64,000 bases of DNA from an uncultured Bacteroidales bacterium. GTDB taxonomy: Bacteria > Bacteroidota > Bacteroidia > Bacteroidales > Bacteroidaceae. The stretch is from contig CADCBH010000009.1 of NCBI GenBank assembly GCA_902799655.1, positions 3,619 through 67,618 on the forward strand, read 5' to 3'. Numbering within the stretch: the first letter of the stretch is position 1; each line of letters begins with the position of its first letter. The translations under genes were made by a program, and so were the position numbers. Under the pieces are notes generated by a model, which ran no database searches, was not told the origin of the DNA, and saw only the letters and a list, made by a program, of their open reading frames with translations. Shown here piece after piece: positions 39,465 to 57,783 of this stretch.

Positions 39465-40790
39465 ATGAAGAAGTTTTTAATTCTGTCAGTACTCATTGGA
39501 GCAGTCCATTCAGACATGCTGGCGCAGAGCCCTTGGACACTTCGGCAGTGCATAGAGCATGCTGTGGGCCACAATATCAGTATCAAGCAAAAGCAGAACA
39601 CCTGCAAGAAGCAGGAGACGCAGCTCTCTACGGCACGTAACAGCCGTCTGCCAGACCTCAACGCATCAGCCTCTGAGACGTTCTCGTTCGGTCGCGGTCT
39701 GACGCTCGACAATACCTATACCGACCGCAACACCAACTCTACCAGTTTCAGTCTCGGCACCACTGTGCCCCTCTTTACGGGTTTCCAGATTCCCAATCAG
39801 ATTAAGCTGAACGAGTTGAATCTCGAGGCCGCCACACAAGACCTCGAGAAGGCCAAGAACGACATCCGCATGCAAGTGGCGAAGGCCTATGTCGAGATAC
39901 TCTATGACCAGGAGATTGCCGATGTGGCACATCGCCAGATTAGCATTGACTCGGCACAGGTGGTACGTCTCAGAGCCTTCGTCGAGAACGGCAAGGCCAG
40001 TCAGGCAGAGCTCTCGCGCCAGCAGTCCACCCTGGCACAGTCGCAGTTGACCGCCACACAGGCCGACAACAACTATCAGCTGGCCCTACTTGCCCTGTCG
40101 CAGTTGCTCGAGTTATCCACCCCTGACGGCTTCACTATTGTGCGCCCTATTGTCAGCACAGTCCCCAAGGGGGCGTCATTGGGCATCTCGCCAGAGGCTA
40201 TCTACGCCGAGGCGCTGACCATCAAGCCTGAGGTTCGGGCAGAGCAGCTCCGTCTGAGTGCCGCAGATCGCAACATCAATATTGCCAAGGCAGCACTCTA
40301 TCCTACGCTCAACTTCAATGCCGGTCTGCAGACAAACTACTACAAGACCAGTGGCATGCCGGCAGACCCCTTTGGTACTCAGATGAAAAATAATTTCAGC
40401 CAGTACCTTGGTCTGTCGCTCAACGTGCCTATCTTTAGCCGTTTCCGGACACGCAACAACATCCGTTCGGCACGCATCGACCGCGAAAACCAACTATTGC
40501 AGTTGGAAAATGTGAAGAAGACGCTCTATAAGGAGATTCAGCAGGTTTACTACAACGCCATAGCCGCTCAATCAAAATATGAGAGCAGCCAGTCAGCCCA
40601 GCAGAGCAGTCTTGATGCCTTCACGCTTACCCAGGCAAAATACGAAAACGGCAAGGCTACTATCACTGAGTTTAACGAGGCGAAGAACAATTATCTGAAG
40701 ACGGAGAGTGACCTGGTCAAGGCCCGCTACGAATATCTATATCAAACGGCGCTGCTCGACTTCTACCGAGGCCGTCAGCTCGATTTCTAA
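39465..40790 (+). CDS. TolC family outer membrane efflux protein
   Basis: Signal peptide, WTLRQCIE, two SRLP/ALYP repeats. Confidence 0.9.
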   Translation: MKKFLILSVLIGAVHSDMLAQSPWTLRQCIEHAVGHNISIKQKQNTCKKQETQLSTARNSRLPDLNASASETFSFGRGLTLDNTYTDRNTNSTSFSLGTTVPLFTGFQIPNQIKLNELNLEAATQDLEKAKNDIRMQVAKAYVEILYDQEIADVAHRQISIDSAQVVRLRAFVENGKASQAELSRQQSTLAQSQLTATQADNNYQLALLALSQLLELSTPDGFTIVRPIVSTVPKGASLGISPEAIYAEALTIKPEVRAEQLRLSAADRNINIAKAALYPTLNFNAGLQTNYYKTSGMPADPFGTQMKNNFSQYLGLSLNVPIFSRFRTRNNIRSARIDRENQLLQLENVKKTLYKEIQQVYYNAIAAQSKYESSQSAQQSSLDAFTLTQAKYENGKATITEFNEAKNNYLKTESDLVKARYEYLYQTALLDFYRGRQLDF

Positions 40791-40808
40791 ATACACTCTG
40801 GAAATCAC

Positions 40809-40841
40809 AAAGAGTGCTCTCCAAAAGGAAAGCACTCTTTT
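40809..40841. terminator. Bidirectional terminator
   Basis: AAAGAGTGCT...AGCACTCTTT between convergent tolC and PUL genes. Confidence 0.8.
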
Positions 40842-40865
40842 CGTTTGTTGCTTAATTAAGCGGTA

Positions 40866-42206
40866 TTATTCAACGGTTATCTTTTTCAAAGTATAGCCAT
40901 TACCCACCATGAAGAAGCCATCTTGCTCTTGCAACAGTTGTATAGATGTCTCGTTGATGACATACTCCAATACCATGTCGCCACTGATTGGGGTATCACC
41001 ACGGCCTGTGTCACCAGAACCTCCGGTAACGAGATTAGTCCACCAGGCAGATGCTGCAGTACCTTGACCTTCACCACTTACATAAGCACGCAGAATGGTA
41101 CCAACTTTGACATGGTTAATCAGCTCAGTCTGCAGAACTTTAAAAGGAGCGTCCCAGGTTACATCGAACGAACCTTCCCATAGAGTAGTCTCAGCGGAGG
41201 TTTCCACAGTAATCTTTTTCACGGTATATCCATTACCCACCATGAAGAAGCCGTCTTGCTCCTGAAGCAATTGTATAGATGTCTCGTTGATGACAAACTC
41301 CAATACCATGTCGCCACTGATTGGGGTATCACCACGACCTGTGTCACCAGAACCTCCGGTAACGAGATTAGTCCACCAGGCAGATGCTGCTGTACCTTGA
41401 CCTTCACCACTCACATAAGCACGCAGAACGGTACCAACTTTAACGTGGTTAATCAGCTCAGTCTGCAATTCTTTGAACGGGGTATCCCATGTTACATTGA
41501 ACGAGCCTTCCCAAAGAGTTACTTCTCCACCTACAGGATATGCGGGATCATGGTTAAGCTCAATAGTGCCAGCTTCGAAGACAACACCTTCCTTATCCTG
41601 AAGCTTCAGTGCATAGACACCATCAGCCAAGTCAGGAACAGTATATTCAATATAGTCACCCTCCTCATTGTAAACGGCATCTACTGAAGTCTCACCGATG
41701 ATAACCTTGGCCACTTTCGACATGTTTGAACCATGCATCGTAGCAGTAGTACCCTGTTTAACCAGAGTTTCGTGGATATCGCTGGCTGCAGGATATGGGT
41801 CGGAAGTAGCAGGTGTCACAGTAATGTTAAGGGTGCGCGAGGTACTCTTACCTACAGTAGTGGTAGCCACAATCTTCAGAACGTGTACACCAATGGGAAG
41901 TGTCTGGTCGATGACAGTGCCTTCGGCAATCTGTACACCATCAAGCAGCCAAGTTACAGTCGTATACTTAATAGGAGTGACCTTAATCTCGATATTCAGT
42001 TTGGTCAGGCGGTCCAGAGTCTGGTCTGCCAAGTCAGTATTCAGAATACGTGGGTCATCATTCTCCGATACCGTGAAGAAGGGATCGTCGTCAGATGAAC
42101 AAGACGTGAGGGCTGTGGTGCCTGCGAAAGCAAAGCACATCACGAAAAACATGGTCAGTGCTTTCCATCCCTTATGCTGATAATGTTTCATATTGTAAGT
42201 CATCAT
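40866..42206 (-). CDS. PUL surface glycan-binding lipoprotein (Ig/PKD-like domains plus two tandem C-terminal domains)
   Basis: Lipobox LTSC-SSDDD; immediately downstream of susD; Trp-rich duplicated module; start may be 42191. Confidence 0.75.
   Translation of the reverse strand: MMTYNMKHYQHKGWKALTMFFVMCFAFAGTTALTSCSSDDDPFFTVSENDDPRILNTDLADQTLDRLTKLNIEIKVTPIKYTTVTWLLDGVQIAEGTVIDQTLPIGVHVLKIVATTTVGKSTSRTLNITVTPATSDPYPAASDIHETLVKQGTTATMHGSNMSKVAKVIIGETSVDAVYNEEGDYIEYTVPDLADGVYALKLQDKEGVVFEAGTIELNHDPAYPVGGEVTLWEGSFNVTWDTPFKELQTELINHVKVGTVLRAYVSGEGQGTAASAWWTNLVTGGSGDTGRGDTPISGDMVLEFVINETSIQLLQEQDGFFMVGNGYTVKKITVETSAETTLWEGSFDVTWDAPFKVLQTELINHVKVGTILRAYVSGEGQGTAASAWWTNLVTGGSGDTGRGDTPISGDMVLEYVINETSIQLLQEQDGFFMVGNGYTLKKITVE
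40869..41520 (-). repeat. Intragenic tandem duplication, 333-bp period
   Basis: e.g. CCATTACCCACCATGAAGAAG at 40897 and 41230; near-identical protein repeats. Confidence 0.92.
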
Positions 42207-42235
42207 ATTTTCTCTAAACTATTATCTCTAAACTT

Positions 42236-43972
42236 TTACTTGATATATCCCTTTCCATATGGGGGTGTAAAGGTATCCTGTACTTTCAGGTCATCCTTAT
42301 CCCACCAGAGGTGCTTGTGCCAGTCGTCCTTACCACCTAAGCGCTCAATAGCAGCAGCGTAGTTAACACTATTATACTGTGATTCCAGTTCAGGGTAATT
42401 CAGACGGGTAGGCATGGTCAGATCGTCACTGGGCACAAAGCCATCTGTAAATGCTTCCAGACGTGTTCTGTCAAGTACGGCGGGGTAGTCAGAACGACGC
42501 ATGTTTGCCCAAGCCTCTGAAGGATTCGTCAGGTGGAGAATCCACGCCTGTGTGTTGATGGTCTCCTTGGGATTGGCTCCAAGAGGGTTATTCTGCAAGA
42601 AGGCATCAATCTCTTCAGAAGAAATCTTATTAGAAGTCAGATAACGGTTGTTGAGCAGTTCCATGGAAGCGCGTACACCAGCCTCATAGTAGCTCTTGAC
42701 ATCACCATCGGCAAACCATTCCATGGACTTAGCCTCAGCCAACAGGAATTGTACCTCAGCAGCAGTCATCAGTATGCCAGGATTAGTAGGCATCTCAAAG
42801 TCGATATTCAGCATTGGACGCATCATACGAGCACGATAGTCGCTGTTGTCATAGTTGTTGGGATCCTGTTCAGCCCACTTCTGGAGTGTGGGGAATTTAT
42901 CTGTAGAGAGCACATTCATCCAATTGTGCCACCATGCAGCACCTGGATTACATGGTTCCTCACCACCACTCACACTAAAGTTAGCCAAAAGCTCATCAGT
43001 CAAGTCAATATTCTGCTCTTTGTCGGGCTTTGTCTGATTACGCTTGATATTATAGTAGTGACGGCAGATACGATAGAGACGAGGATCGTTCGTATTCTTG
43101 AGCTGATAGAACAACGTAGAGCAGACGAGCGTGGGTGAAGAGGGATCTTGTCCGTAAAGAATCTCACTAAGCGCGTTGGTGCGGAAGTCATAGTCATCAG
43201 CACCGTTATAAAAAGTATAAGGTGAATCTTGATAGACAACGAATGCATCATCATCTGCTGAGTCAATATAGCCACTGTTCATGGCCTTCACAAATTCCGT
43301 CTTTGCCTTCTCTTCATTGACATCAGAGATACGCATAGCATAACGCATGCGAAGTGAGTTGGCATATTTCTTCCATTTGTTGACATCGCCACCCATACTG
43401 GTCACATCGCCCGTAATACGATCGGTACCAGTACCTAACTGCTGTACACAGGCTTCCAATTCGTCAAAGAACCAGTAGTATAGTTTCTCTACGGTATCGT
43501 ACTTAGGTGTAGACTTGTTTTCAATATAACCCAGACCGGCATCAGAGCAAGGCACATCACCATAAATGTCAGCCAGAACGCCTGTCAGAAATACCCGATG
43601 GATACGCAGAGCTGCATTCAGATTGGGTTTGTCTTCTGAATTGTGGATGGCATCGACAAGATTCTTAATAGACAGCACATAGTAACGATCCCATATACGA
43701 CGGCTGATGTCGTTCTCAAAATGAACAGAACCAGCATAGTATGTGACGTTCCAACCACCAGCCAAGTGCTGTGTGAAGCCAGTGATATAGTTACGGTAAG
43801 TATCCATCAGGCTGATATCACCATAAGTCTGCAACAGACAGGTGGTCAGCTGTGCATTGGGGTCAAGCTGAGAAACTTTCGAATCATCGGTATTCAGCTC
43901 CTCCATATAACTGTCGCTGCAGGCACTAAAGCTCAATGCTACGACGGTCAGTAATAAATATATCTTTTTCAT
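42236..43972 (-). CDS. susD: SusD-like lipoprotein
   Basis: Lipobox FSAC; LADIYGDVPCS, KWKKYANSLRMR, SEAWANMRR; follows susC. Confidence 0.9.
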   Translation of the reverse strand: MKKIYLLLTVVALSFSACSDSYMEELNTDDSKVSQLDPNAQLTTCLLQTYGDISLMDTYRNYITGFTQHLAGGWNVTYYAGSVHFENDISRRIWDRYYVLSIKNLVDAIHNSEDKPNLNAALRIHRVFLTGVLADIYGDVPCSDAGLGYIENKSTPKYDTVEKLYYWFFDELEACVQQLGTGTDRITGDVTSMGGDVNKWKKYANSLRMRYAMRISDVNEEKAKTEFVKAMNSGYIDSADDDAFVVYQDSPYTFYNGADDYDFRTNALSEILYGQDPSSPTLVCSTLFYQLKNTNDPRLYRICRHYYNIKRNQTKPDKEQNIDLTDELLANFSVSGGEEPCNPGAAWWHNWMNVLSTDKFPTLQKWAEQDPNNYDNSDYRARMMRPMLNIDFEMPTNPGILMTAAEVQFLLAEAKSMEWFADGDVKSYYEAGVRASMELLNNRYLTSNKISSEEIDAFLQNNPLGANPKETINTQAWILHLTNPSEAWANMRRSDYPAVLDRTRLEAFTDGFVPSDDLTMPTRLNYPELESQYNSVNYAAAIERLGGKDDWHKHLWWDKDDLKVQDTFTPPYGKGYIK

Positions 43973-43987
43973 AAGACGTATATGCAA

Positions 43988-46900
43988 TTAGAATTTGACG
44001 TTAACATTGAAACCATAGCTGCGGCGTGAGGGCAGCGAACCATACTCCAGACCGAGACCAGAGGTATTGTAACCAGAGTCAGGATCGATGTTGGGGATCT
44101 TCTTCCATACGATGAACGGGTTACGGGCCACGAAGCTAACACTGAGGCTCTTCACTACCTTCAACTTGCTGAGCATCTTCTCAGGGAAGGTGTAGCCGAA
44201 GGTTATCTCACGACACTTGATATATGAGTTATCATAAACAAAGGCGCTCTGCACATCATTAGCAACAGCCTTCCAATAAGTTTCGGGATTCACAGGAATA
44301 TCGTTCTGCCTATAGGTACCATCACCATTATCAATCACACCCGGAGCGATAAATCCATTGCATTTTTTTTCTGCACGCCATTCGGCATCCGTCTTTCCTG
44401 CAGCTTCACGAGCTTCCTCAGATGCGTACCACTCGTCACGACCAGCCAGTGTTTGAATAGCCTTACCTGTCTTATATGCTGAATTCATAGACATCGAGTA
44501 GAGGTCAGCACCAATCTTGACGTCGAAGCTAGCAGAGAGGCGGAAGTTTTTGTAAGTAAAGGTTGAATAAAAACCGCCTGTCCAATCCCATGATGAATTA
44601 CCAATCGTCTTGATTTCGTCGTCAACCTCGGGCAAACCGGTCTTAGCATTGATGATAACCTGGCCGTCAGGAGCGCGTTTGAAGTCCTTACCGCGGATGG
44701 CACCATAGTCCTCACCAACCTTAGCACCTACACTGACACCGCACCATGAGGCATTGGCTAGCTCAAAGTAATCCATACCCTCAACGAGTGATTTCACTTT
44801 GTTGACATTCTTCGAGTAGTTCACACCAGCATCCCATGCAAAGTCTTTATACTGGAGCACACGACCGTTGAGGGCGATCTCGATACCCTTATTCTCAATC
44901 TCACCAGCATTAATCAGACGGTAAGAGTAACCAGAAGTAGTCGTTGATGCCAGACCGATGATCTGGTCTTTAGACAGCTGATTATAGTAGGTCAAGTCTA
45001 AACTCAAACGATTGTTCAAGAACTTCATTTCCAAACCGAGTTCGAAAGAGTTGGTGCGAGTTGGCTTCAGGTCCTTGTTGGGCTGTGTGCTGTTGTTAAT
45101 CATACCAATGGTATAGCCCGAATAGCTGTACTTGCCAGTTGAATAGTTCAATGCCAGCTGGTAAGGATCAGTATCACTACCGACCTGTGCCCATGAGGCA
45201 CGGAACTTACCGTAGTTAATGAGCTTCTTATTGTTGATGAATTCAGAGAAGACGACGCTACCCGAGAAAGAGGGGTACACATATACATTATTATTAGTAG
45301 GCAGTGTAGAAGACTTATCACCACGAACCGTAGCCTCCAGATAATAGGTATGTTTATAACCTACACTGGCACTAGCATAGAGTGAGTTGATTTGCTTCTG
45401 ATACATGTCTTCACGCACGTTCTGCTCCTGATAGTTCATGATATTGATGACATCACTCATCTGCTGGGTCATACCAGTACTGGTGGTGGTCTTGTTGTTC
45501 ACTTTAAAGATGTTGCCACCCAGTGAGGCATTGACGTCGAAGTCGCCGAATGTGTTGTTATACAAGGCGAGCAGCTCGGCATTGAGCGTGCGGTTGTTGA
45601 AAATCTTGTTGGTCAACTGTCCAGCAGGTGTGCCTGGCGTTGTCTTGGCAATATAGTCCTCAAAGGTCATGTTGTTGATATCCGTACCAATGGTTCCCTG
45701 CAATTTCAGGTGGTCAGTGATATTCCAGATAGCCTTAGCGGTAAAACGGAATACGTCTTTTTTCGTTGTATTCTTGTTCTTGTAGAGATCCCAATAGGGG
45801 TTCTTGTTATACTGGTCATTACCATTCCAGTTTGAGTAGTTGCCATCAGCATCTTGATAAGTCTGCAGCCATGCCTGGTTGTAAGTACCTGCCAGTGTCA
45901 TGAGGTTCTTACCAACATTGCTCTGAGAGTCACCCAGGGCAGGACGGTTCTTTACATCCTCACGGGTATAGTTGGCAGTGAAGTCGAAATCAACAGGACC
46001 TGCGGAAGTGGTCACGCGCAGGTTGAAGTTATCACGGCTCATGTTGGTGTTGGGAAGGATGTCCTTGTTGCGCATGTCGGTCACAGAGAAACGTAGACCC
46101 GTCTTACCAGAGCTAACGCTCAGAATAGCTGTATTCTGTGTGGTAAAACCAGTACGGAAAAAGCCGTCGGCATTGTTAGGATACATCTTAAACTCACGCT
46201 CTACACCATCGAAATACTTATAGACGAAAGCATCGGCCTTAGGACCCCAGCTTGAGTTAGTACCAGAGGTGCTCGATGTAGGCAATTTGCCACCATAGCC
46301 CATACCATAGACCTCTTGGATATCATCCCACTTGGCCAACTGAGTATCTACAGTAAACGAACCATTATACTCAACACTGATTCGGTCCTTTTCAGCCTTC
46401 TTGGTGGTGATAAGGATCACACCGTGAGAGGCACGGCTACCATACAGGGCAGAAGCAGCAGGACCTTTCAGCACAGTCATGTTCTCAATATCATCAGGGT
46501 TGATGGCAGAGATACCGTCACCAAGGTCATAACCGCCGGCCTCGCCTGCGCTACCAAAGTTGGTATTGTCCAAGGGCACACCGTCAATCACATAGAGAGG
46601 CTGGTTGTTACCTGTCATCTCCGTATTACCACGAAGCAGCACGCGGGTAGAACCAGAGGCGCCACCAGCGGTATTCTGGACGACGAGACCGGCCACCTTA
46701 CCAGACAGTGAGTTGATCACATTGGTTTCCTTAGCCTTGGTGAGCTCCTCACCCTTCACCTCAGAAACGCCATAACCCAGGGCTTTGCGGTCACGCTTGA
46801 TACCCAGGGCTGTTACTACCACCTCGCTGAGGGCGGTACTCTCTTCCTCCATCAGGACAGTCATACCGTTGGCAGCCTTTACGGTTACCTCTTTGTAACC

Positions 46901-47170
46901 CACATAGCTGATGATCAACTCTGTGCCAGGTTTTACATCGACGGTAAAACGACCATCCAGATCAGTGACGGCACCGGTAGTCGTACCCTTCACACGGATG
47001 CTTGCACCGATGATAGGTTCCTTACCGTCAGTCACCGTACCAGAAATCTTTGAAGCTTGCTGTACGCTGGAAACTCCCATGACGTCAGCAAACGACGACT
47101 GCAGGGCTACTGGCAACCACAGGGCTCCAGCGGCTAACATGCAGGCAATACTACGATTGTTCAGTTTCAT
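43988..47170 (-). CDS. susC: SusC-like TonB-dependent transporter
   Basis: EVVVTALG, QPLYVIDGVP, VLKGPAASALYGSRASHGVILITTK, C-terminal GFNVNVKF. Confidence 0.95.
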   Translation of the reverse strand: MKLNNRSIACMLAAGALWLPVALQSSFADVMGVSSVQQASKISGTVTDGKEPIIGASIRVKGTTTGAVTDLDGRFTVDVKPGTELIISYVGYKEVTVKAANGMTVLMEEESTALSEVVVTALGIKRDRKALGYGVSEVKGEELTKAKETNVINSLSGKVAGLVVQNTAGGASGSTRVLLRGNTEMTGNNQPLYVIDGVPLDNTNFGSAGEAGGYDLGDGISAINPDDIENMTVLKGPAASALYGSRASHGVILITTKKAEKDRISVEYNGSFTVDTQLAKWDDIQEVYGMGYGGKLPTSSTSGTNSSWGPKADAFVYKYFDGVEREFKMYPNNADGFFRTGFTTQNTAILSVSSGKTGLRFSVTDMRNKDILPNTNMSRDNFNLRVTTSAGPVDFDFTANYTREDVKNRPALGDSQSNVGKNLMTLAGTYNQAWLQTYQDADGNYSNWNGNDQYNKNPYWDLYKNKNTTKKDVFRFTAKAIWNITDHLKLQGTIGTDINNMTFEDYIAKTTPGTPAGQLTNKIFNNRTLNAELLALYNNTFGDFDVNASLGGNIFKVNNKTTTSTGMTQQMSDVINIMNYQEQNVREDMYQKQINSLYASASVGYKHTYYLEATVRGDKSSTLPTNNNVYVYPSFSGSVVFSEFINNKKLINYGKFRASWAQVGSDTDPYQLALNYSTGKYSYSGYTIGMINNSTQPNKDLKPTRTNSFELGLEMKFLNNRLSLDLTYYNQLSKDQIIGLASTTTSGYSYRLINAGEIENKGIEIALNGRVLQYKDFAWDAGVNYSKNVNKVKSLVEGMDYFELANASWCGVSVGAKVGEDYGAIRGKDFKRAPDGQVIINAKTGLPEVDDEIKTIGNSSWDWTGGFYSTFTYKNFRLSASFDVKIGADLYSMSMNSAYKTGKAIQTLAGRDEWYASEEAREAAGKTDAEWRAEKKCNGFIAPGVIDNGDGTYRQNDIPVNPETYWKAVANDVQSAFVYDNSYIKCREITFGYTFPEKMLSKLKVVKSLSVSFVARNPFIVWKKIPNIDPDSGYNTSGLGLEYGSLPSRRSYGFNVNVKF

Positions 47171-47237
47171 AGATGTACTTGAATTGTTATTATTAGGTTA
47201 TTTTGAATGAAGTCTGTATGACTCGTTTTAAGCACTG

Positions 47238-47294
47238 CAAAAGTAGATATTATTTATAATAAAGAGGTTTGATTGCGTACATAATGAGGTTTGA
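47238..47294 (-). promoter_or_regulatory. susC promoter with tandem operator
   Basis: TACTTTTG (47238-47245) and GAGGTTTGA at 47264 and 47286 (22-bp period). Confidence 0.7.
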
Positions 47295-47347
47295 ATGCTA
47301 ACGATTGAGAGTATCTATACCTTTTGTACCAGCCCCGCAATAGGCTC

Positions 47348-47460
47348 AAACAAAGGGGGTGAACCCTTGAGTAGGTCCACCCCCTTTCCACTTACATGTG
47401 TTACTAACTACTAAAAACTACTACTAAAAACTACTTATATCTTGATTACCTATTGAATGA
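47348..47460 (-). ncRNA. Candidate PUL-associated sRNA (~110 nt)
   Basis: Own promoter, no ORF, repeated UAGUUUUUAGUAG body, terminator 47352-47387 whose mismatch is G-U only on minus. Confidence 0.6.
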
Positions 47461-47465
47461 TGATG

Positions 47466-47522
47466 CAAAAGTAGTGTTTTTTTCGGTGATAGTGGTTTGA
47501 AAGCATACAAAAAGAGGTTTGA
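47466..47522 (-). promoter_or_regulatory. sRNA promoter with the same operator as susC
   Basis: TACTTTTG (47466-47473); GTGGTTTGA 47492 and GAGGTTTGA 47514; same 26-bp offset and 22-bp period. Confidence 0.7.
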
Positions 47523-47553
47523 AAACTGATGTATGCAAATTTTCAAACCTCTT
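47508..47553 (-). terminator. Terminator of GH5-GH94-MFS operon
   Basis: 14-bp perfect stem AAGAGGTTTGAAAA (47512-47525) / TTTTCAAACCTCTT (47540-47553), U-tract on minus. Confidence 0.7.
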
Positions 47554-47570
47554 CAGATAGGATTTACACC

Positions 47571-48914
47571 TTACTTCTTAATCGGGTAGATATATAGCAA
47601 TCCCCACATAATCGCAGCAATAATAGCTGGGAAAACGGAGAAGAGCGCCCATATCATCTTGTTCACAGAGATGGGGTCCGTGATGGTAACTGTGGTCTGA
47701 CCAGTCACGGGATCAGTACCAGAGGCAAATCCGGCGATGCCGAGCAGGAGTACGACGAGGGAGCCGCTGATGGCTGTGCCGAACTTCATCGCCATGGTGC
47801 CAGAGGAGAAGATGAGTCCTGTGGAGGATGTGCCGTTCTTCTGTGTGGCATAGTCGGAGACGTCGGCATACATAGACCAGAGCAGTGGTGAGTAGATGCC
47901 GATGCCGACGGATGTGAGTATGACGATGGCTATCATGAGCCAGATGTAGGCTGGATCCATGGGTATGAAGAAGAAGAGGATGGAAGTGATGGTGCAGATG
48001 ACTGCAGCCCACATAAAGGCTTTGCGCTTGGACCCTACCCACTTGGTAAAGACGGGCGAGATGGCGCCGAATAGCATGCAGGTAGCCTCGCCGAATGTCA
48101 TAAAGACGGTATAGCTGATGATGAGTCCGCTAACGGTGATGTTGCCATGCATGCAGTATTCGAACATATATCCTGCTACGGCGTATCGGAATCCGTTGAA
48201 GAAGTTCATGCAGATGCCGATGAGTGTGAGGATGATCCAGGGGCGGTTGCGGAAGAGGTCGGCAAAGGGTTTGAGGGAGAATTTCTCGGCACGAACCGGT
48301 TTGAGGCGCTCCTTGGTCATCAGTCCGCATGCCAGTGTGCCGGCAGCCGCCAGGAGTCCGAAGAAGGCGCCGAGCACAGCATACTGGTGCTGGTCGGAGC
48401 CCCCGACGAATTTCTGGAGGTAGGGGAAGGAGAGCAGTGTGATGAATCCCATGGCATAGGCTCCCACCATACGGAATGCCGAGAACTGGTTTTTCTCATA
48501 GTCGTCAGTAGTCATGACGCCCAGCAAGGAGCCGTATGGCACGTTGACGGCTGTATAGACCACCATCATGAGCAGGTAGAGTGTATAGGCCCAGATGCGT
48601 TTTCCCATAGGACCGAAGTCGGGTGTATAGAGCAGCAGGGCGAAGATGAGTCCAAAGGGTATGGCACCGAAGATGAGCCAGGGGCGGTATGTGCCCCATC
48701 GGCTCTGTGTGCGGTCGGCCAGTGTACCCATCATGGGGTCGGTGACCACGTCGAACATTCGTGCGATAAGCATCAGTGTGGCTGTGTCGGCCACGGTGAG
48801 TCCGAAGATGTTGGTAAAGAATAGCGGGAAAGCTATCGACATCACCTTCCATGTGATGCCACCAGCTGCCGCGTCACCCAAAGCATATCCTATTTTTTCA
48901 CTTAGTTTTGCCAT
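47571..48914 (-). CDS. MFS glycoside-pentoside-hexuronide transporter
   Basis: EKIGYALGD, RMFDVVTDP, RWGTYRPW, MYADVSDY. Confidence 0.9.
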   Translation of the reverse strand: MAKLSEKIGYALGDAAAGGITWKVMSIAFPLFFTNIFGLTVADTATLMLIARMFDVVTDPMMGTLADRTQSRWGTYRPWLIFGAIPFGLIFALLLYTPDFGPMGKRIWAYTLYLLMMVVYTAVNVPYGSLLGVMTTDDYEKNQFSAFRMVGAYAMGFITLLSFPYLQKFVGGSDQHQYAVLGAFFGLLAAAGTLACGLMTKERLKPVRAEKFSLKPFADLFRNRPWIILTLIGICMNFFNGFRYAVAGYMFEYCMHGNITVSGLIISYTVFMTFGEATCMLFGAISPVFTKWVGSKRKAFMWAAVICTITSILFFFIPMDPAYIWLMIAIVILTSVGIGIYSPLLWSMYADVSDYATQKNGTSSTGLIFSSGTMAMKFGTAISGSLVVLLLGIAGFASGTDPVTGQTTVTITDPISVNKMIWALFSVFPAIIAAIMWGLLYIYPIKK

Positions 48915-48949
48915 AGCGTTGTCGTAATTAGTAAATGGTAGATAGTGAT

Positions 48950-51424
48950 TTACATGATGACCTCTACGGTGTGCTTACCTGGCGTAGCCTTGATGACGTT
49001 GCCGTCGATGGCAGTGCCGTCGAGCAGCACCTTGGTGACGCCGCTTTGCTTGCCTTCGGGGTTTTTCACCGTGATGTCGAACACGGCATCGCGCAGCACG
49101 CGCTTCACATGATATTCCTTGAGTGTTGACGGAATGCAAGGATCGACTTCGATGCCATCGAAGGTAGGTTTGACGCCGAGGATATACTGTGTGATGGTCA
49201 GCCAGTTCCATGCGGCAGTACCCGTAAGCCACGAGTTCTTACCCTCACCAGGGCGGGCAGCATCCTTACCTGCCACCATCTGGCAATAGACGTAAGGTTC
49301 AACCTTGTGAAGCTGCTGGTCTGTGATCCATGCGGGACATATCTTGGTATAGTGCTCCCAGGCATCGTTGCCACGCCGTGCCACCGTCTCACCGATAATG
49401 ACCCAGGGATTGTTGTGGCAGAAGATACCAGCGTTCTCCTTATAGCCGGCAGGGTAGCTGGAGATTTCGCCCATCTCGACATAATAGCGGGTGAAGGCAG
49501 GATTGTTGAGTACCATGCCGTGCTCGCAGTCGAGGTATTTCTTGCAGCTGTCGAGCGCCTTATCGACCATACCCTCTTCCTGTCCGATGCCTGCCATGGT
49601 GCAGAATCCCTGACTCTCGATGAATATTTTGCCCTCTTCGCACTCCTTGGAGCCAATCTTATTGCCATAGAAGTCGTATGCTCGCAGATACCACTCGCCA
49701 TCCCATCCATGCTTCTTGACAGCCTCGACCATAGCGTCTATGCACCCTTGAGCACGGTTGGCCTCCTCGAGTTTACCCATCTTCTCACAGAGTTCGACAT
49801 ACTGTTTGCCTGTGAAGACGAACAAGCCAGCAATCATCAGTGACTCAGCCTTTGAGCCCACGCTGTTGTTCTCGGTAGTCTGGAACGACTCGTTGGGGTC
49901 CCATGAGAAGCAGTTCAGATTCAGACAGTCGTTCCAGTCGGCGCGCCCGATGAGTGGCAGCATGTGAGGACCGAGATTCTCTACCACGTGATTGAACGAG
50001 ATGCGCAGGTGTTCGAAGAGAGACACCTCGCTGCCAGGCTGGTTGTCCCAGGGTACCTGCTCGTCGAGGATAGAGAAGTCGCCCGTCTCCTTGATATAGG
50101 CGACAGTGCCGAAGATGAGCCAGCAGGGGTCATCGTTGAAACCGCCACCGATATCGTTGTTGCCGCGCTTGGTGAGAGGCTGGTACTGGTGGTAGCAGCC
50201 ACCGTCGGGGAACTGTGTCGATGCGATATCGATGATGCGCTGACGAGCACGGCTCGGTATCTGGTGAACGAAACCCACCAAGTCCTGGTTGGAATCGCGG
50301 AAGCCCATGCCGCGGCCTACGCCACTCTCGAAGAACGAGGCAGAACGTGAGAAGCAGAAGGTGATCATACACTGATACTGGTTCCAGATGTTGACCATAC
50401 GGTTCAGACGTTCGTCATCGCTCTGGACGCTGAACTTGCTCAGCAGTTCATCCCACAACTGGCACAGTTCGGCGAAGGCAGCATCGACAGCCTCGACGGT
50501 AGCAAAGCGGCTGATGACGGCATGCGCCTTCTCCTTATTGATAATGGTATGGTCGAGGGCACCCAAGGAGGTAATCAGATCACCCTCCTTGGCAGCAAAC
50601 TTCTTCTCCTGCTCGTTTTCAACATAGCCCAGCACAAAGATCAAGTCACGGCTCTCACCAGGCTGCAGCGTCACCTCCACATAGTGCGAGGCGATAGGAC
50701 TCCAACCGTGAGCCAGCGATTTGGCAGGCTTTCCAGCCATGACACACTGAGGATTAGAGAAGTCGTTATAGAGTCCGATGAATGTTTCGCGGTCGGTATC
50801 GTAGCCGTCGGCCTTGGCATTGGTCAGCGCGTAGTAGGCATAGTGGTTACGTCGCTCCTTATACTCGGTCTTATGGTAGATGACAGACCCGCTCTCAATC
50901 TCCACCTCACCAGTCGACCAGTTACGCTGGAAGTTCTCCATATCAGTAGCAGCATTCCAGAGGCACCACTCGGTGAAGGAGAAGAGCTGCAGCGTCTTCA
51001 CGGCCTGAGAGGTATTCTTCAGCGTCAGTTTCTGTACCTCAGCCCATGTGTGAAGAGGAACGAAGAAGAGCACCGAAGCCTCCACGCCATTCTTACTGCC
51101 CGTAATACGGGTATAGTTCATGCCATGCCGGCACTCATAGCTGTCGAGTGGTGTCTTAGAAGGTTTCCATCCCGGGTTCCATACCGTCTCGCCATCCTTG
51201 ATATAGAAATAGCGGCCTCCTGCATCCATGGGAACACCATTGTAGCGGTAACGTGTGATGCGGCGGAACTTGGCATCCTTGTAGAAGTCGTAGCCACCGG
51301 CAGTATTGGAAATCAATCCAAAGAAGTCCTCATTGCCCAGATAGTTGATCCAAGGGAACGGTGTAGCAGGATCTGTGATGACATACTCACGATGCTGATC
51401 ATCAAAATGTCCAAATGATTTCAT
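48950..51424 (-). CDS. GH94 cellobiose-type phosphorylase
   Basis: [59 protein letters not shown]; exact acceptor specificity not determinable by eye. Confidence 0.92.
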
Positions 51425-51438
51425 AATATTCTTTTTCT

Positions 51439-51486
51439 ATATTTCGTTAATTCGATGTTCCGATGTTTCGATAATTCGATATTTCG
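51439..51486 (-). repeat. TCGA-core 8-bp tandem array (6 units)
   Basis: Minus strand: TCGAAATA TCGAATTA TCGAAACA TCGGAACA TCGAATTA ACGAAATA. Confidence 0.85.
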
Positions 51487-51488
51487 AA

Positions 51489-52625
51489 TTATTTTCCTGT
51501 CAAAAGGTCTACCAGGCCCTTGTCCTTGAAGTCATGCTTCTGCTGATCCCAGAAACCGAAATCTGCATCATAACACCAAGTGGTCCACGCAATATTGAAT
51601 TCGTCGAAGACGGTCAGCATGTCCTTCGTCCAGCGATATGCCAGTTCACGGTCGACGGGTTCATAGACACCCCATTCGCCGCAGAACAGTTGGAGGTTGT
51701 ACTTCTTGGCAGCCTCGATGGCATCCTTGAAGTCGGCACGTATGCGGTTGATGTCCCATACATCCGTGGTGTATTTATTCTCGTCGATGACCGCCTTCAC
51801 GGTATCGTTAGCAGCCTCGTAGTCTTCTTTTGACACGAGCACACCCGGGTAGTTCACCTTGCCGGTGTACTTGCCGATAGGTGTCCACCATGCCCCATAG
51901 TGGGTCAGAATCATAGGGTTGTAATAGTGGAAAGAGAGGATGATATTCTTGTCGCCCTCGGGAACCTTCAGGTGCTTGATGGTGCCATAGCTCTGCCACA
52001 TATTAGAACCGATGACCAGTGTGCGCTGTGGCTCACGCTCACGGAGAGCCTTGTGGACTTTGGCGATCAGCTGATTCCACTGCTCGTGGTCCTCAGCGAC
52101 GGGTTCGTTCATGAACTCATAAGCCACAGAGTCGTTGCTATAGCCTTTCAGCACGTCAGACAGCTGATACCACATATCGATAAGGTCCTGTTGCGCCTTC
52201 TCGGATGTAAAGAGGGTGTTGGCATTGGCGCCGTCCTCGTTGACAGCATTGAAATAGTGTGAACGGATGATATGCAGGTCAACGATGGTGCGCAGGTGGT
52301 GCTTCTCAGCCCAGTTGATAGCATTCGTCATCAGCTGCCATGCCTCGGGCAACTTGTTGCCATCCTCATCCCAGAACTGTACCTCGTCGATGGGCAGACG
52401 TACGAAATCGAATCCCAGCGAGTCAAGGCGTGCGAAGTCATCTTCCTGAATATGGTTAAGGCGTGCTTCGCCACGCTCTTCCGACTGTGACAGCCAATGG
52501 CTGACATTAGTACCCCGTTTGATGCGGAAATTGTTAGTTTCAGCCGTCTCAGCCTTACTGGCACATGCTGTCATCACCACTACGGCAACCGCCATCAGTG
52601 CCCATGAAATCATTGTCTTTTTCAT
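51489..52625 (-). CDS. GH5 glucanase/cellodextrinase, lipoprotein
   Basis: Lipobox MTAC; FVRLP, DLH, EFMNEP, FHYY, GEWG; subfamily uncertain. Confidence 0.88.
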   Translation of the reverse strand: MKKTMISWALMAVAVVVMTACASKAETAETNNFRIKRGTNVSHWLSQSEERGEARLNHIQEDDFARLDSLGFDFVRLPIDEVQFWDEDGNKLPEAWQLMTNAINWAEKHHLRTIVDLHIIRSHYFNAVNEDGANANTLFTSEKAQQDLIDMWYQLSDVLKGYSNDSVAYEFMNEPVAEDHEQWNQLIAKVHKALREREPQRTLVIGSNMWQSYGTIKHLKVPEGDKNIILSFHYYNPMILTHYGAWWTPIGKYTGKVNYPGVLVSKEDYEAANDTVKAVIDENKYTTDVWDINRIRADFKDAIEAAKKYNLQLFCGEWGVYEPVDRELAYRWTKDMLTVFDEFNIAWTTWCYDADFGFWDQQKHDFKDKGLVDLLTGK

Positions 52626-52668
52626 TGCTTTCTCTTGTTTTAAGTTAATTGCTTTGCTTTTTACCTTA

Positions 52669-53868
52669 TTATTCCTTTACTTTACCCTCCATGATGCCTT
52701 TCAGCACCCAGGAGTTTTTGACTTTCATGCCACGCTCACGGTCAAAGATGCCAAACTTCTCACCACCGTTGCCGAAGCTGTTATTGTCCCAGACGAAAGT
52801 CGAGAAGCCACGTTTACGCGCCTCGCTGACCAGGAATTTGCAATAGTATGACGCATTCTCGCGCTGCAGATCGCTCTGGCTGCCCTTGGTATGGTCGGTA
52901 ACGCCCCATTCGCCCATCACGATACCCAATCCCTTCGATGCCCAGGTGTCAACCACCTTGTCGAAGAAAGTCGTCATGGTCTTCTCGTCACTGGGCGAAG
53001 CCTCTCCATACTGTTTGTAAGGCTCACCCCAGTAGTAGTATTTGCACTCTCCGGCATAGTCCCATGGGGTATAGTAGTGAAACTCGACACTCATATAGTC
53101 GTTGCCGTTGCCCTCTGCATCGGTAGGGATGATAAAGGCATTGTCATAAAGACCGAAGTCAGGGTTGCAGACATAGGTCTGGACGATGAGGTGGCGCTTC
53201 AGGTTGTTACCACCGGTGGCACGTACCACATCGACGAATGTCTGGTTGTATGAGTTCTGCACGGCAAGATTCTCAGCCTCAGGCTTTCCCCAATTGTCCT
53301 TGATATGCACCTCGTTGGTACCGGCAAAAGCCACACGATAGTCATACTGGGCAAACTCACTGGCGATATTCATCCAGAGCAGGGCGAGTTTCTGATTGTT
53401 TTCATCCTTGTACTGGTAGGTAGGACGCCCTTCGAGCCACTTGTCGTGGTGGGTGTTGATGATGACCTTCAGGTCGTTGCTGAGGCACCAGTTTACTACC
53501 TCCTTGATACGTGCCATCCATGCCTTGTCGATACTCATCGCCATAGGGTTGGTGATATGGCACTGCCAACGGATAGGGATACGGATGGCAGTAAAGCCAG
53601 CCTCTTTGACGGCCTTGATGACCTTCTTGGTTACGACGGGATTGCCCCATGCCGTCTCTGCCTTGATGCTATTGTCGGGCATGCCGATAGCCATGCTTTC
53701 GCCATTCTGCCCGGGTGCCGAGCACTCGAACTGATTGCCGAGATTCCAGCCCACCATGTCCTTGTTCCACTGCTGAGCGGTAGGCTGTGCCCCTGCAGTC
53801 ATCACAGCACCTGTCATGGCCAGCACGACGAGTCGGATGCGTGAGAGAATGTTACTTTTTGTTTCCAT
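52669..53868 (-). CDS. GH5 (GH5_4-like) endoglucanase
   Basis: GWNLGN, ETAWGNP, IRIPIRW, NTHHD, GTNE, FHYY, GEWG, FVWDN. Confidence 0.9.
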   Translation of the reverse strand: METKSNILSRIRLVVLAMTGAVMTAGAQPTAQQWNKDMVGWNLGNQFECSAPGQNGESMAIGMPDNSIKAETAWGNPVVTKKVIKAVKEAGFTAIRIPIRWQCHITNPMAMSIDKAWMARIKEVVNWCLSNDLKVIINTHHDKWLEGRPTYQYKDENNQKLALLWMNIASEFAQYDYRVAFAGTNEVHIKDNWGKPEAENLAVQNSYNQTFVDVVRATGGNNLKRHLIVQTYVCNPDFGLYDNAFIIPTDAEGNGNDYMSVEFHYYTPWDYAGECKYYYWGEPYKQYGEASPSDEKTMTTFFDKVVDTWASKGLGIVMGEWGVTDHTKGSQSDLQRENASYYCKFLVSEARKRGFSTFVWDNNSFGNGGEKFGIFDRERGMKVKNSWVLKGIMEGKVKE

Positions 53869-53900
53869 TTCTGAGATCTTTTGTTAATAGTTTTGCATCG

Positions 53901-53956
53901 CAAAGTTATATGGTTTTCAATTAAAAGGGGTTTGACATCAAATATTTAAGGTCTCA
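53901..53956 (-). promoter_or_regulatory. GH5 operon promoter with degenerate tandem operator
   Basis: TAACTTTG (53901-53908); GGGGTTTGA at 53927 (26-bp offset); degenerate AAGGTCTCA at 53948. Confidence 0.55.
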
Positions 53957-54009
53957 TTCTTCTCAACTGTCAGATAAGAAACGTTTTTGATAGTTTTCAT
54001 ACTCATGGG

Positions 54010-56766
54010 TTAACCGTATTTGGAGGGTGAAACACCGAAATATTTCTTGAAGACAGTACTGAAGTACTTGGCATTGTCGAAGCCAGTGACGGTGGCGGTT
54101 TCAGTAACTGAACGACCGCTACGCAGCAGGCTGGCGGCACGTTCCAAACGGATGACACGGATAAAGTCTTGGGGCGACTTACCCGTAAATGACTTCAGCT
54201 TGATATAAAACAACGTACGGCTCATGGCCATCTCACGACAGAGGCGGTCGATATTGAAATCCGTGTCGGAGAGGTTCTCAACTACAATTCTCGTCACCTT
54301 CTCGATGAATGCCTGGCTTTCGGCCTCATCGACCACTGCAGGAGCCTCCGCTTCATCGGCAGAGGACGGCAGATTCTCGTTGGCAGCTTTCTCGATACCA
54401 TCACCCGTCACACTCGGACTGCTCAGCACCAGTCGCATATATTTGCTGTGCAGCTGATAGACGCGCCATGCGCCATAGAAGGCCAGCACGACCAGTGCCA
54501 CATAGACACACCACATCCACCATGAGTCCCACCAAGGACGGGCTATCACGATAGTCAGCTGCATGGAGTCGATGACAACACCACTGGTACGGCTCACACA
54601 TTGCAGGGTGAGCAGATGCTTGCCAGGTTCCAGATTGGTAAAGCGGATATGCTGTTCGCCTGTGGTACGGCTCCAGGCACCCTTGCCCACCTGATAACGA
54701 TAGACGATATCATAGTGGTTGCGCATATTGACACTCTCAAAGTAGAGATCGAAGGTGCGCTCATGGTAGCCCAGCTGTAGCTTACCCTCGGTGAGCATCT
54801 CATATAAGCGGTCGTTGACAGCCTCATCCTGGTCTTTCGAAAGGATGACGCGCAGCAGATGGAGCTTGGCGGTATAGTCGAGTGGTTGTATATCCTGTGG
54901 ACGAATGACCACACTACCCGTTGTCGTACCGAAGATGATATTGCCATCGGGCAGATTGGCGACAGCACCACGGGTGTACTCGCAGTCAAGACCATAGCAG
55001 TAGTTGACATTAATGGCTTTTGTGAGGTCGTCGGGAGCGATAAAGGCCAGTCCTTCTTCTGTGGCAGCCCAGATGCGACCATCCCTACCCTGCACAAGAC
55101 TGCTGACGTGGTTGGAAGGCAGGCCGTCTTCCTTGGTTATCTGACGGCTCTCGTGCTTGGCGAGGTGATAGACGTAAATACCTCCGCCATCGGTGGCTAT
55201 CCACAATTCCATATCCCGCGACAGCAGATGGTTGACAAAGGGATTCACATCCGTCACTCCCGAGGGGGCATAATTGAGTTCCTTGACGGCACCGGTAGTC
55301 GGCGTGATCAATTGCAATCCGAAGGCAGTACCCACAGCGATCTGTCCTGAGGCCAGTTGGGTAACAGACTGCACATTCTGGATGGGATAGTAGCGCACAG
55401 CATCCTTGGTCTTCTGTAACAAGTCGCCCATCAGACTGCCAACCCACAGGCTACCGTCGCGGTCATAATAGGTGACATAGACGTGATCATCCTTGATGAG
55501 ACCATCGGCAGAGGTATATACCTGTTTCACGTTGGCACGACTGTCGATTTCATAGACTCCTTTACCATAGGTCGAAACCAGCAGGCTGCCGTCGGGTTTC
55601 TTGTAGGCACTGACAGCCACCGTACCCTGACAGCAGTGTTGCCATTCGCCCGTTTTGGTATTCAGGATGCTGATACCATTGTCAGTACCCATCAGCAACT
55701 TGTCATCAGACAACGGCATCACGGTATTAACATGGTCGTTGAGCAGACTCTGACGGTTGTTGGCGATATGCCGATAGATGGCCGAAGTACTGCCAATAGG
55801 CCGTGCGATGTCGATTCCTCCGGAATAGGTGCCTACAACGATATTCTTCCACTGATCGACCAACAGACTGTACACGCCGTTGCCATGGAGCACGCCATAG
55901 GCAGTATCATTGGCATCGAAAAGCAGCGTGCCCTGTCCCATCCCGTCGCGTTGCATCTGGTAAACGCCCTGACCATCAATGCCGATGAGCATGGTATGTT
56001 CGTCATAGGGGCAGATGCTACGGATAGGATTCTGGCGGGTAGCGCCCATCAGTTGTACGAAGGCATCACCCACCACACGGGCTTCATCATCGGTGGTCAC
56101 GAGGTTCAGACCGTTCTCATAACCGCCCAGCCATACCTTTCCCGTCAGCTCATCATAATAGCCGCACTCCACATTATAGGGCAGCAGGCGCTCGCCCTTG
56201 CTGTTGTACACGCCACTACGGGTACAGAAGAGCAGGTGATTTCTCACCCGGATAATCTCATTGACATAGCCACCTTTGAAGAGTTGTTTGACGGTACCGT
56301 CCTTCAGCATCCAGCCTCCGTCGTGCAGGGCCAATACCAGCCCTTCAGAAGTCGGACACACATCATTGAGTGCCACCTGGTTGCCTACCAGTTCTGGCAG
56401 TTTGGCAATACATTCGAAGCGATCCTGACGGGGATTGAAGAGGTATATGCTGCCACGGTTGTCGAAGGCATAGAGCGTCTCATCACCTCCAGCCAACTTG
56501 ATGACGCGACCACCTAAATGGCCATAGGGAGTACCTTCGTTCAGATGGTATATTCTGATGGTAGAACCATTATAACGGCCTACACCGGTTTTCGACGACC
56601 ACCATACAACGCCCGTCGAACTCTGGCAGAGCGAGAAGATGCGCTGGTTGTCCATGCCGTCGTCCTTACCCAAGTGGGTATAGGTGAAGTCCTTCACGCT
56701 GATAGCGAAGGTGCATAGTGCAAATAGCGTTAGTAGTATGGCCGCCAGGCCTCTTCTGTATTTCAT
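54010..56766 (-). CDS. HTCS-like regulator: propeller sensor, Y_Y_Y, TM, AraC HTH; no kinase or receiver
   Basis: GTYSGG/ATDGGG propeller repeats, FTNLEPGKH, RPWW-TM, FNIDRLCREMAMSRT...GFDNAKYFSTVFKK. Confidence 0.85.
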   Translation of the reverse strand: MKYRRGLAAILLTLFALCTFAISVKDFTYTHLGKDDGMDNQRIFSLCQSSTGVVWWSSKTGVGRYNGSTIRIYHLNEGTPYGHLGGRVIKLAGGDETLYAFDNRGSIYLFNPRQDRFECIAKLPELVGNQVALNDVCPTSEGLVLALHDGGWMLKDGTVKQLFKGGYVNEIIRVRNHLLFCTRSGVYNSKGERLLPYNVECGYYDELTGKVWLGGYENGLNLVTTDDEARVVGDAFVQLMGATRQNPIRSICPYDEHTMLIGIDGQGVYQMQRDGMGQGTLLFDANDTAYGVLHGNGVYSLLVDQWKNIVVGTYSGGIDIARPIGSTSAIYRHIANNRQSLLNDHVNTVMPLSDDKLLMGTDNGISILNTKTGEWQHCCQGTVAVSAYKKPDGSLLVSTYGKGVYEIDSRANVKQVYTSADGLIKDDHVYVTYYDRDGSLWVGSLMGDLLQKTKDAVRYYPIQNVQSVTQLASGQIAVGTAFGLQLITPTTGAVKELNYAPSGVTDVNPFVNHLLSRDMELWIATDGGGIYVYHLAKHESRQITKEDGLPSNHVSSLVQGRDGRIWAATEEGLAFIAPDDLTKAINVNYCYGLDCEYTRGAVANLPDGNIIFGTTTGSVVIRPQDIQPLDYTAKLHLLRVILSKDQDEAVNDRLYEMLTEGKLQLGYHERTFDLYFESVNMRNHYDIVYRYQVGKGAWSRTTGEQHIRFTNLEPGKHLLTLQCVSRTSGVVIDSMQLTIVIARPWWDSWWMWCVYVALVVLAFYGAWRVYQLHSKYMRLVLSSPSVTGDGIEKAANENLPSSADEAEAPAVVDEAESQAFIEKVTRIVVENLSDTDFNIDRLCREMAMSRTLFYIKLKSFTGKSPQDFIRVIRLERAASLLRSGRSVTETATVTGFDNAKYFSTVFKKYFGVSPSKYG

Positions 56767-56802
56767 CGTTAGTATTGTCTTGATGTATAGTAGTCAGCAG
56801 TT

Positions 56803-57783
56803 TTATTGTCCACCCAGCCGTGCAAAATAGGCGATGATATCCTCCCAGGTCTTAAAGGTGTCGCTGCCATATTCCAGCAAGGTGGCCATCGTGTCGCCTC
56901 CACCTTTGTGAGCTATCAGGTAGTCGCCATAGAGCAGGTCGCGGCGCCACGTCGTTATCAGATGGCGCCAGGCAGGCACACCGATATACTCTTCCAACCA
57001 GCAGCGCGCCGTAGCTTCTTCTTCAGCCACGAAGTACACCTGATAGTGTTCGATGAGTAGTCTGACAGCCTTTTGTACCGATGAGGCAGGCTGCTGCTCC
57101 CTATTGGTCATACACTCCATACCTATATATATGATGGGACGTTCGCGGTGCTCCTGGCGGTCGTCAATCCAGCGGATGACAGGTACCACGGAGTGCATAA
57201 AGGACTGGTCGTTCATGCGGTGTTCACCATGAAAGTGGAGAGCCTGGGGATACACGCTATGGAACAGGTCGTAAGTATCTACCGTCGTATCCTGGTCGCC
57301 AAAGAGTCCGAAGACACGCTGGCGCTCCTCGTCGGTGACACCTTTGAAGCGCTGCTCCGACTGTTCTTTGTATTCCTTGACGAGGGCTTTGTCAACATAG
57401 AACTCCTGCACGCCGTCCAGACGGGGATTCTGAAATTGTTGGGTACCCGTCATACCATGGGCACGCATCGTCTCGCCCATCTCCAAGGCAGCATTCACGC
57501 AGATGCGGTCGAAGCCATAGAGTTGCTCGGCATACATGCCACCCATCGACGTACCGATAATCAGGTCGGGCTGCTCCTTTTGGCAGATATCCTGCAATAG
57601 CGCCATCGCCTCAGCGGGGTGTACGGGCAGATCGGGAGCGACAACCTTGGTCTGCGGCATCACTGTACGCAAACGGCTGACAGTGCCCGACTGTCCGCTA
57701 CTGGCAAAGCCATGGACATAGAGCAGTGTCTTACCCGCCAACAACTCCGGATATTGTAAAATATATGGATTTTCTGCATTCAT
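56803..57783 (-). CDS. YqiA/YcfP alpha/beta hydrolase fused to degenerate NT5C-like domain
   Basis: YVHGFASS, IIGTSMGG, GEHR; C-terminal RPIIYIGME...DLLYGDYLI...FKTWEDII; ATG 57783. Confidence 0.75.
   Translation of the reverse strand: MNAENPYILQYPELLAGKTLLYVHGFASSGQSGTVSRLRTVMPQTKVVAPDLPVHPAEAMALLQDICQKEQPDLIIGTSMGGMYAEQLYGFDRICVNAALEMGETMRAHGMTGTQQFQNPRLDGVQEFYVDKALVKEYKEQSEQRFKGVTDEERQRVFGLFGDQDTTVDTYDLFHSVYPQALHFHGEHRMNDQSFMHSVVPVIRWIDDRQEHRERPIIYIGMECMTNREQQPASSVQKAVRLLIEHYQVYFVAEEEATARCWLEEYIGVPAWRHLITTWRRDLLYGDYLIAHKGGGDTMATLLEYGSDTFKTWEDIIAYFARLGGQ

Follow-up and report, generated by a model that had tools for sequence, protein, structure and literature searches.

Small RNAs are known to tune PULs in Bacteroides; to our knowledge, the transcription factors that control these RNAs are mostly unknown, and almost nothing is known for rumen Prevotella. 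In Proteobacteria, SgrS acts on ptsG as a substrate-induced RNA that represses translation of an importer, depends on a chaperone and is triggered by sugar-phosphate stress. The small RNAs GibS and FopS of Bacteroides thetaiotaomicron have unstructured 5' ends and pair at start codons, and GibS, which is induced by sugar, has a seed in common with the 14-copy family FopS (PMC7366714, PMC11697453). In Bacteroides fragilis, the DonS-type RNAs are summarised as cis-antisense RNAs encoded within a PUL that repress PUL genes (PMC13750123). SrcF of Segatella copri is a 272-nt RNA that is present in 97% of strains and encoded outside the PUL; its level depends on the PUL sensor-regulator and it affects PUL expression, in a species without known small-RNA chaperones (bioRxiv 10.1101/2024.04.05.588293).

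Here we analyse a candidate small RNA in a window of 64,000 nt (the whole stretch of DNA studied, to which coordinates refer unless a contig or locus is named) from a rumen Prevotella metagenome-assembled genome (G000) of 88 contigs and 92.8% completeness. The candidate sits within a beta-glucan/cellobiose PUL whose genes all lie on the minus strand, in the order regulator, GH5, GH5, GH94 (of the cellobiose-phosphorylase type), MFS, a 400-nt spacer, susC, susD and a gene of 446 amino acids. It is located between the MFS importer gene (47571-48914), the last of the upstream operon, and susC (43988-47170), and is co-oriented with the latter. The sensor-regulator of the PUL (54010-56766, minus strand) combines propeller, Y_Y_Y and AraC HTH domains, and a Pfam search of it returned neither a histidine kinase nor a receiver domain. 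Its start is 37 nt past the stop of the preceding gene, in a gap that holds no promoter module of its own. Tentatively, and with a probability of roughly 45%, we read the element between MFS and susC as a regulator-driven small RNA of ~114 nt, born by promoter capture and possibly feeding back on the importer.

In architecture and logic, the candidate is like GibS and FopS, yet it is no member of those families. Common to all of them are a -7 promoter of the sigma-ABfr type, an extended 5' stretch free of structure, a terminator hairpin, a proposed pairing across start codons and PUL genes as targets, and the likeness extends to the sharing of a seed between one sugar-responsive RNA (GibS) and a multicopy family (FopS). 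It differs from them in that it has no sequence or Rfam-model match, that its inducible member would lie within the PUL and under the PUL's own operator, and that its best candidate target is an inner-membrane MFS importer and not SusC. A further difference lies in the protein partner: a search that was positive in Bacteroides thetaiotaomicron found no RRM_1 (PF00076) protein, the RbpB type, in G000 (92.8% complete). This absence agrees with the lack of known small-RNA-binding proteins in Segatella copri, and it leaves an RbpB-type sponge role, one of two modes of action in the original prediction, without a partner; we dropped it.

Both DonS and the candidate are non-coding RNAs within a PUL and adjoin susC, but DonS is antisense to the PUL mRNA that it overlaps, whereas the candidate runs in the direction of the PUL genes without overlapping any of them, and its proposed site of action, in trans, lies 1.4 kb upstream. 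With SrcF it shares being a Prevotellaceae small RNA tied to a PUL sensor-regulator; SrcF is repressed through that regulator with no operator defined, whereas for the candidate activation is proposed and an operator is defined. The logic of a substrate-induced RNA that represses the importer of that substrate is the one known from SgrS, which is unrelated in sequence and is not driven by the pathway's own activator.

The promoter assigned to the candidate, which we call distal, closely resembles that of susC. It consists of an operator with two repeats, TCAAACCTC and TCAAACCAC, at a period of 22 nt (47492-47522, minus strand, found by pattern search) and a -7 box, TACTTTTG, read from the sequence at 47466-47473, so placed that transcription would start near 47461. 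The proximal promoter (47238-47294, minus strand) has two copies of TCAAACCTC as its operator pair (47264-47294) and the -7 box TACTTTTG (47238-47245). In the 64-kb window, the pattern TCAAACCWC-N13-TCAAACCWC has 2 matches, compared to 0 in 100 shuffles, and genome-wide just two operator pairs are combined with a -7 box (TAnnTTTG), both at an offset of 49. The distal and susC promoters thus have an identical period (22) and an identical -7 offset (49 nt from repeat 1); their operator blocks of 32 nt have the same letter at 26 positions, as originally predicted, and both -7 regions read CTACTTTTGCA, an exact 11-nt match. The distal element lies 228 nt upstream of the susC promoter on the same strand, and the two together place four direct repeats and one inverted copy inside 290 bp.

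The inverted copy belongs to the terminator hairpin of the MFS operon (47512-47553, minus strand), the 3' arm of which is the first distal operator repeat. Its arms (47512-47525 and 47540-47553) are complementary at 14 of 14 positions and are followed by UUUUUG, and the hairpin folds with -19.3 kcal/mol (z = -4.8). Both the double use of this repeat and the presence, beyond the MFS terminator, of a second -7 box with tandem operator repeats in the geometry of the susC promoter had been predicted and were reproduced. At the susC module the corresponding upstream arm is degenerate, with AAAAGGTATAGA in place of the AAAAGGTTTGA of other modules. A third promoter, that of the GH5 operon (53901-53935, minus strand), carries one TCAAACCCC repeat 27 nt from its -7 box TAACTTTG. 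The distance from operator repeat 2 to the -7 box is likewise 27 nt at all three PUL promoters, and by its sequence the GH5 operon promoter qualifies as the third of the same regulon in this PUL.

From the distal promoter, a non-coding transcript of ~114 nt (about 115) with its own terminator is predicted, and we found no ATG-initiated open reading frame inside it. Its 5' 73 nt are unstructured (-2.5 kcal/mol, weaker than shuffles) and include a G/U-rich single-stranded tract (47400-47436, minus strand), the proposed seed, which contains a doubled 13-mer and UAGUUAGUAA; a direct-repeat search places the two copies of the 13-mer 13 nt apart at 47407-47432. The transcript would end at an intrinsic terminator recognized as an inverted repeat (47347-47387, minus strand), a hairpin of 14-15 bp with arms at 47352-47365 and 47374-47387 (-27.6 kcal/mol, z = -3.9), followed by UUUGUUUG. 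A simple terminator scanner with narrow loop and T-run rules called neither this hairpin nor that of the MFS operon. The search of a phage collection gave no match and so no support for a phage origin, and BLAST of the RNA against its own genome returned just one 17-nt match, later placed in a copy of the family described below.

This anatomy is thus confirmed and is not a product of chance, in an arrangement specific to one lineage. The prediction of some 110 nt without an open reading frame, with a doubled tract and a terminator of its own, is borne out, as is the co-orientation of the RNA, which lies on the strand of susC without overlap and is not antisense to its leader. With a promoter under the PUL operator, ~73 unstructured nucleotides and a strong terminator, a regulator-driven short non-coding transcript is the natural reading; that it is transcribed, and induced by the substrate, we infer from this anatomy. 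The broader claim of a substrate-induced small RNA stands in part: the anatomy of promoter, operator and terminator, a likeness to a family of small elements and complementarity to MFS speak for it, and conservation in homologous PULs does not.

To place the distal element in an evolutionary context, we compared 80 genome loci fetched via the MFS protein and 80 metagenome loci fetched via SusC. In this beta-glucan/cellobiose PUL family, one promoter module, which we read as regulator-dependent, heads each transcription unit: a hairpin with repeat 1 as its 3' arm, repeat 2 located 22 nt on, where it covers part of the -33 region, and, 27 nt later, a -7 box. The module stands after MFS and before susC in L011, L023 and L041, whereas L092 and loci of the human-gut type have it between the regulator and GH5-susC. 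L017 (the locus of genome G015) and L020 have two modules, the first of which leads to a CBM-like secreted protein and a third GH5, and the second to susC. Their extra unit between MFS and susC (L017:6341-8960, L020:2409-4700) encodes a secreted protein of 190-303 amino acids in which CBM-like segments are repeated and a sorting-type domain forms the C-terminus; in L018, the GH5 of this unit is inverted.

Modules align without gaps over ~104 nt, and so does the distal element with those of L011, L017, L020, L023 and L092. It has the two TCAAACC-type repeats 22 nt apart, the TAnnTTTG box 27 nt on and the upstream inverted copy that pairs with repeat 1, which is lost at the susC module. What it does not have is a coding gene within ~90 nt, whereas in 17 of the 17 other instances of the module fetched from the genus a coding gene begins 16-87 nt past the -7 box. 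The two modules of the window are 58-59% identical, no closer than to those of other species, which reach up to 68%. These flat identities make the distal element a second member of the module family and not a recent duplicate, so that we rejected its description as a recent copy of the susC promoter. They are also too flat to settle a clean orthology of first and second modules with L017 and L020.

The main rival to a regulatory RNA, which we consider unlikely but a real contender, starts from here: the element would be a functionless by-product of a PUL rearrangement, in which the first of two modules has become geneless, a repeat fragment with a terminator has come to lie behind it, and the short RNA made from it has no role. 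Pairs of modules with genes between them do occur (L017/G015 and L020), and every other module fetched drives a coding gene, as this reading would have it. Against it, no remnant of the missing genes is detectable: the spacer retains no residual similarity to the unit of open reading frame and GH5 in L017, L018 and L020, so that we rejected a relic of deleted genes, and G000 contains no orthologue of the GH5 of the extra unit. Moreover, promoter, motif spacing and strong terminator are all intact.

The distribution of the arrangement favours the by-product. When 400 genomes of the genus were scanned for the pattern, 20 contained modules, and this genome alone had two within 300 nt, the pair of G015 being 2.4 kb apart. 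The RNA is absent from L011, L013, L016, L023, L024, L041, L091 and the loci of the GH5-susC type, and BLAST of its body against the 400 genomes gave short tract matches only. Conservation in homologous PULs, one of the checks that had been proposed, therefore fails, with the RNA absent from all those examined except the metagenome contig L095.

In this single other carrier, 2 of 400 spacer positions differ. Sliding identity shows that the similarity is confined to a block of ~900 nt (46829-47728) that is 99-100% identical and flanked by regions of 70-90%, and that spans the 3' end of MFS, the whole spacer and the first ~340 nt of susC. As judged from this profile, either the regulatory region has recently been exchanged by recombination between diverged lineages, or the contig is chimeric. 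Since the block includes coding DNA on either side, we did not count L095 as independent support for selection acting on the RNA; the lack of conservation beyond the recombined block counts, again, for a by-product. Smaller islands of high identity occur elsewhere between the PUL of the window and L095.

Two further resemblances were noted in the genus. The 5' end of the RNA matches a GH13 gene in G375 at 24 of 25 positions, which we read as chance (E = 1.2e-4 per genome, or ~0.05 hits expected across 400 genomes). In L031 and L041, a similar G/U-rich tract with an unrelated terminator follows straight after the MFS stop (in the first 90 nt) without a promoter, and the usual module before susC comes after ~100 nt. 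Going by short collinear words and an equal spacing of 91-92 nt to the word TCTCAATC, this tract may be homologous to the tract-terminator segment of the window; with short words only and weak scores from the family covariance model (E = 0.66 and 1.4), we did not accept a homology of tract and terminator and keep it as a lead only.

A 6-mer scan of G000 for tract-like sequence uncovered seven near-identical non-coding elements of ~125 nt, at C43:14526-14648, C7:155601-155729 and C13:268-392 on the plus strand and at C19:4679-4805, C44:1778-1904, C20:80794-80923 and C15:68749-68883 on the minus strand. All seven have the motif GUUAGUAGUUUU, a G/U-rich body with GUUAGUAGUUUUUUCAU and UUUUAGUUAGUAA, and a conserved hairpin, for which C15 and a variant at C20:3234 carry compensatory changes; in this seven-copy subfamily, the hairpin has no U tract. 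A -7 box that reads TACCTTTGCATCAG is found in 4 or 5 of the 7 copies, and four copies have ~110 nt of common upstream sequence with the inverted repeat TTGCGACAA...TTGTCGCAA. No long open reading frame runs over the copies or their hairpin on either strand, and Rfam had no match at 8 family loci. The motif, with one mismatch allowed, occurs at 39 sites genome-wide, 31 of them intergenic, and its reverse complement, AUGAAAAAACUACUAAC, is typical of starts of MKKLL signal peptides.

The family is nearly confined to G000, with weak matches in 2 of 150 genomes of the genus. Either a Prevotella analogue of the multicopy families of small RNAs or a selfish repeat is possible; its near-identical, lineage-specific copies are as expected of a recently spreading repeat and fit the by-product reading. 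Diverged units with -7 box, motif and canonical terminators are found at C3:138271, C20:72580, C4:89555 and at 390-491 of the window, those of C3, C4 and C20:72580 with other hairpins than the family's. The unit in the window (plus strand, -7 box at ~372-379) scores 20.4 bits as a diverged relative (E = 0.059 in the window) and lies in the spacer upstream of a 390-amino-acid gene that starts at 661; either a small RNA or a long 5' leader is conceivable here.

We built a covariance model (R1) from the 7 copies alone, with the candidate excluded. In the 64-kb window, the candidate is its best match, aligned end to end from 47473 to 47348 with 28.4 bits (E of ~1e-3 in the window and a borderline ~0.05 at genome scale, where the genome search does not list it), and the alignment starts at the distal -7 box. 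In pairwise alignments of the candidate with C13 and C15, 4 and 5 of 1000 dinucleotide shuffles, respectively, reach the observed score. In the candidate, the -7 box precedes the (G)UUAGUAGUUUU / UAAGUAGUUUUU motif by 36 nt, compared to 34-37 nt in the family, and past the -7 box the distal module reads CATCATCA, like the family, whereas other PUL modules read CAGCG or CACCC. The family hairpin, AUCAUAAAGGCCCGC...GCGAGCCUUUAUGAU, is not in the candidate, which has an unrelated G5/C5 hairpin instead. On these alignments, the simplest history would be that a PUL module was fused to an RNA body of the family type at or near a shared -7 box and start region.

We screened 2132 initiation regions in G000, based on crudely called gene starts, for pairing with the tract. 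Compared by duplex energy and longest helix, the set as a whole does no better than shuffled tracts, windows inside coding sequences or the opposite, wrong strand; that the genome-wide signal never exceeds shuffles is a further point for the by-product. Initiation regions of SusC-like genes are not enriched among the predicted targets either, which leaves the repression of competing PUL mRNAs, the other mode of action first proposed, without support. For the 7 family copies, a SusC-like gene and a gene of 911 amino acids are among the predicted top targets. In other Prevotella genomes, sequences complementary to the tract are found just upstream of start codons.

Within the PUL, the initiation region of MFS (48903-48935, minus strand, -21 to +12 around the AUG) pairs with the tract at -21.6 kcal/mol as calculated by RNAduplex, which ranks 6 of 2132, and that of the regulator at -21.9 kcal/mol, which ranks 5 of 2132. 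The MFS pairing is equalled by 13 of 1000 dinucleotide shuffles in the window and 19 of 1000 in L095; the regulator pairing is not significant, with 106 of 1000 shuffles doing as well. When the tract itself was dinucleotide-shuffled, 6 of 22 runs placed one PUL gene among the top 6, and 0 of 22 placed two there. In L095, the MFS pairing reaches -26.4 kcal/mol over ~31 bp, again from -21 to +12 around the AUG, despite a diverged GH94-MFS spacer. Fourteen relatives without the RNA reach -5.7 to -17.9 kcal/mol, so that strong MFS complementarity is found in the two carriers only. The GH94-MFS spacer (48915-48952) measures 38 nt in the window, ~45 nt in L095 and 4-14 nt in most relatives; the additional letters are ACUA-rich, and the site to which the candidate RNA is complementary lies among them.

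Predicted pairings of this kind count as weak evidence, and we regard the MFS start region as a moderate, specific candidate target. That the complementarity is present in both carriers although their GH94-MFS spacers have diverged argues against a functionless by-product. Feedback on MFS is the leading mechanism that we propose for the candidate RNA, with pairing in vivo and a repressive effect as its presumed steps. Uniquely in this genome, the distal module would have been fused at its -7 box and start region to the G/U-rich body of a lineage-specific small RNA family. The propeller/AraC regulator, once activated by substrate, would fire the distal promoter together with those of the GH5 operon and susC, which would yield an RNA of ~114 nt, unstructured in its 5' part and closed by the terminator hairpin. 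Its tract would pair antisense with A/C/U-rich initiation regions, the MFS start region being the best candidate, and repression of MFS would limit uptake by negative feedback and free MFS expression from that of the GH genes on the same mRNA.

Both remaining explanations are less likely than a small RNA or an orphan promoter. In one, which we find improbable, the element is a tandem promoter with an attenuated leader, from which partial read-through adds to susC expression while the hairpin tunes susC or insulates it from the MFS operon and the distal promoter. The co-orientation, the position 228 nt upstream and the shared operator would suit such a role, and the U tract (UUUGUUUG) is interrupted, so termination may be incomplete. 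However, susC has a complete promoter of its own, so that another promoter answering to the same regulator would bring no further input, and the hairpin is strong (-27.6 kcal/mol). An Rfam scan of 40000-58000 (E <= 1) returned nothing relevant and no leader or riboswitch match, and in the fold of the RNA the 5' part is unstructured and we saw no alternative anti-terminator pairing. Highly improbable is a role at the level of DNA only, in which the extra regulator sites influence the susC promoter over a distance of 228 bp, be it through cooperativity, looping or titration, and the -7 box is incidental: the clustered repeats and the use of distant half-sites by AraC-family proteins (as in AraC O2-I1 looping) are in its favour, but the -7 box matches that of susC exactly over 11 nt and stands at precisely the offset of a functional promoter, and the same module drives genes in relatives.

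If the RNA is inert, the locus still documents the shuffling of modular promoter-terminator units among PULs. Under the reading that we prefer, a regulator-driven small RNA, it brings together on 10 kb a complete testable circuit, with a sensor-regulator, its operator at three promoters, a short RNA and a candidate target, and it offers a plausible birth route for a regulatory RNA, in which a body of the family type comes to lie behind a borrowed, regulated promoter. In its fullest form, the regulator would directly switch on an RNA of its own locus, a member of a multicopy, seed-sharing family captured behind the PUL operator, which would pair at the start codon of the importer and provide both feedback and uncoupling of the last cistron, in a Prevotella without an RRM-type or other known RNA chaperone. 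We regard this full combination as rather doubtful; if true, Prevotella would have its own counterpart of the GibS/FopS arrangement, one for which transcription factor, operator and target are all defined.
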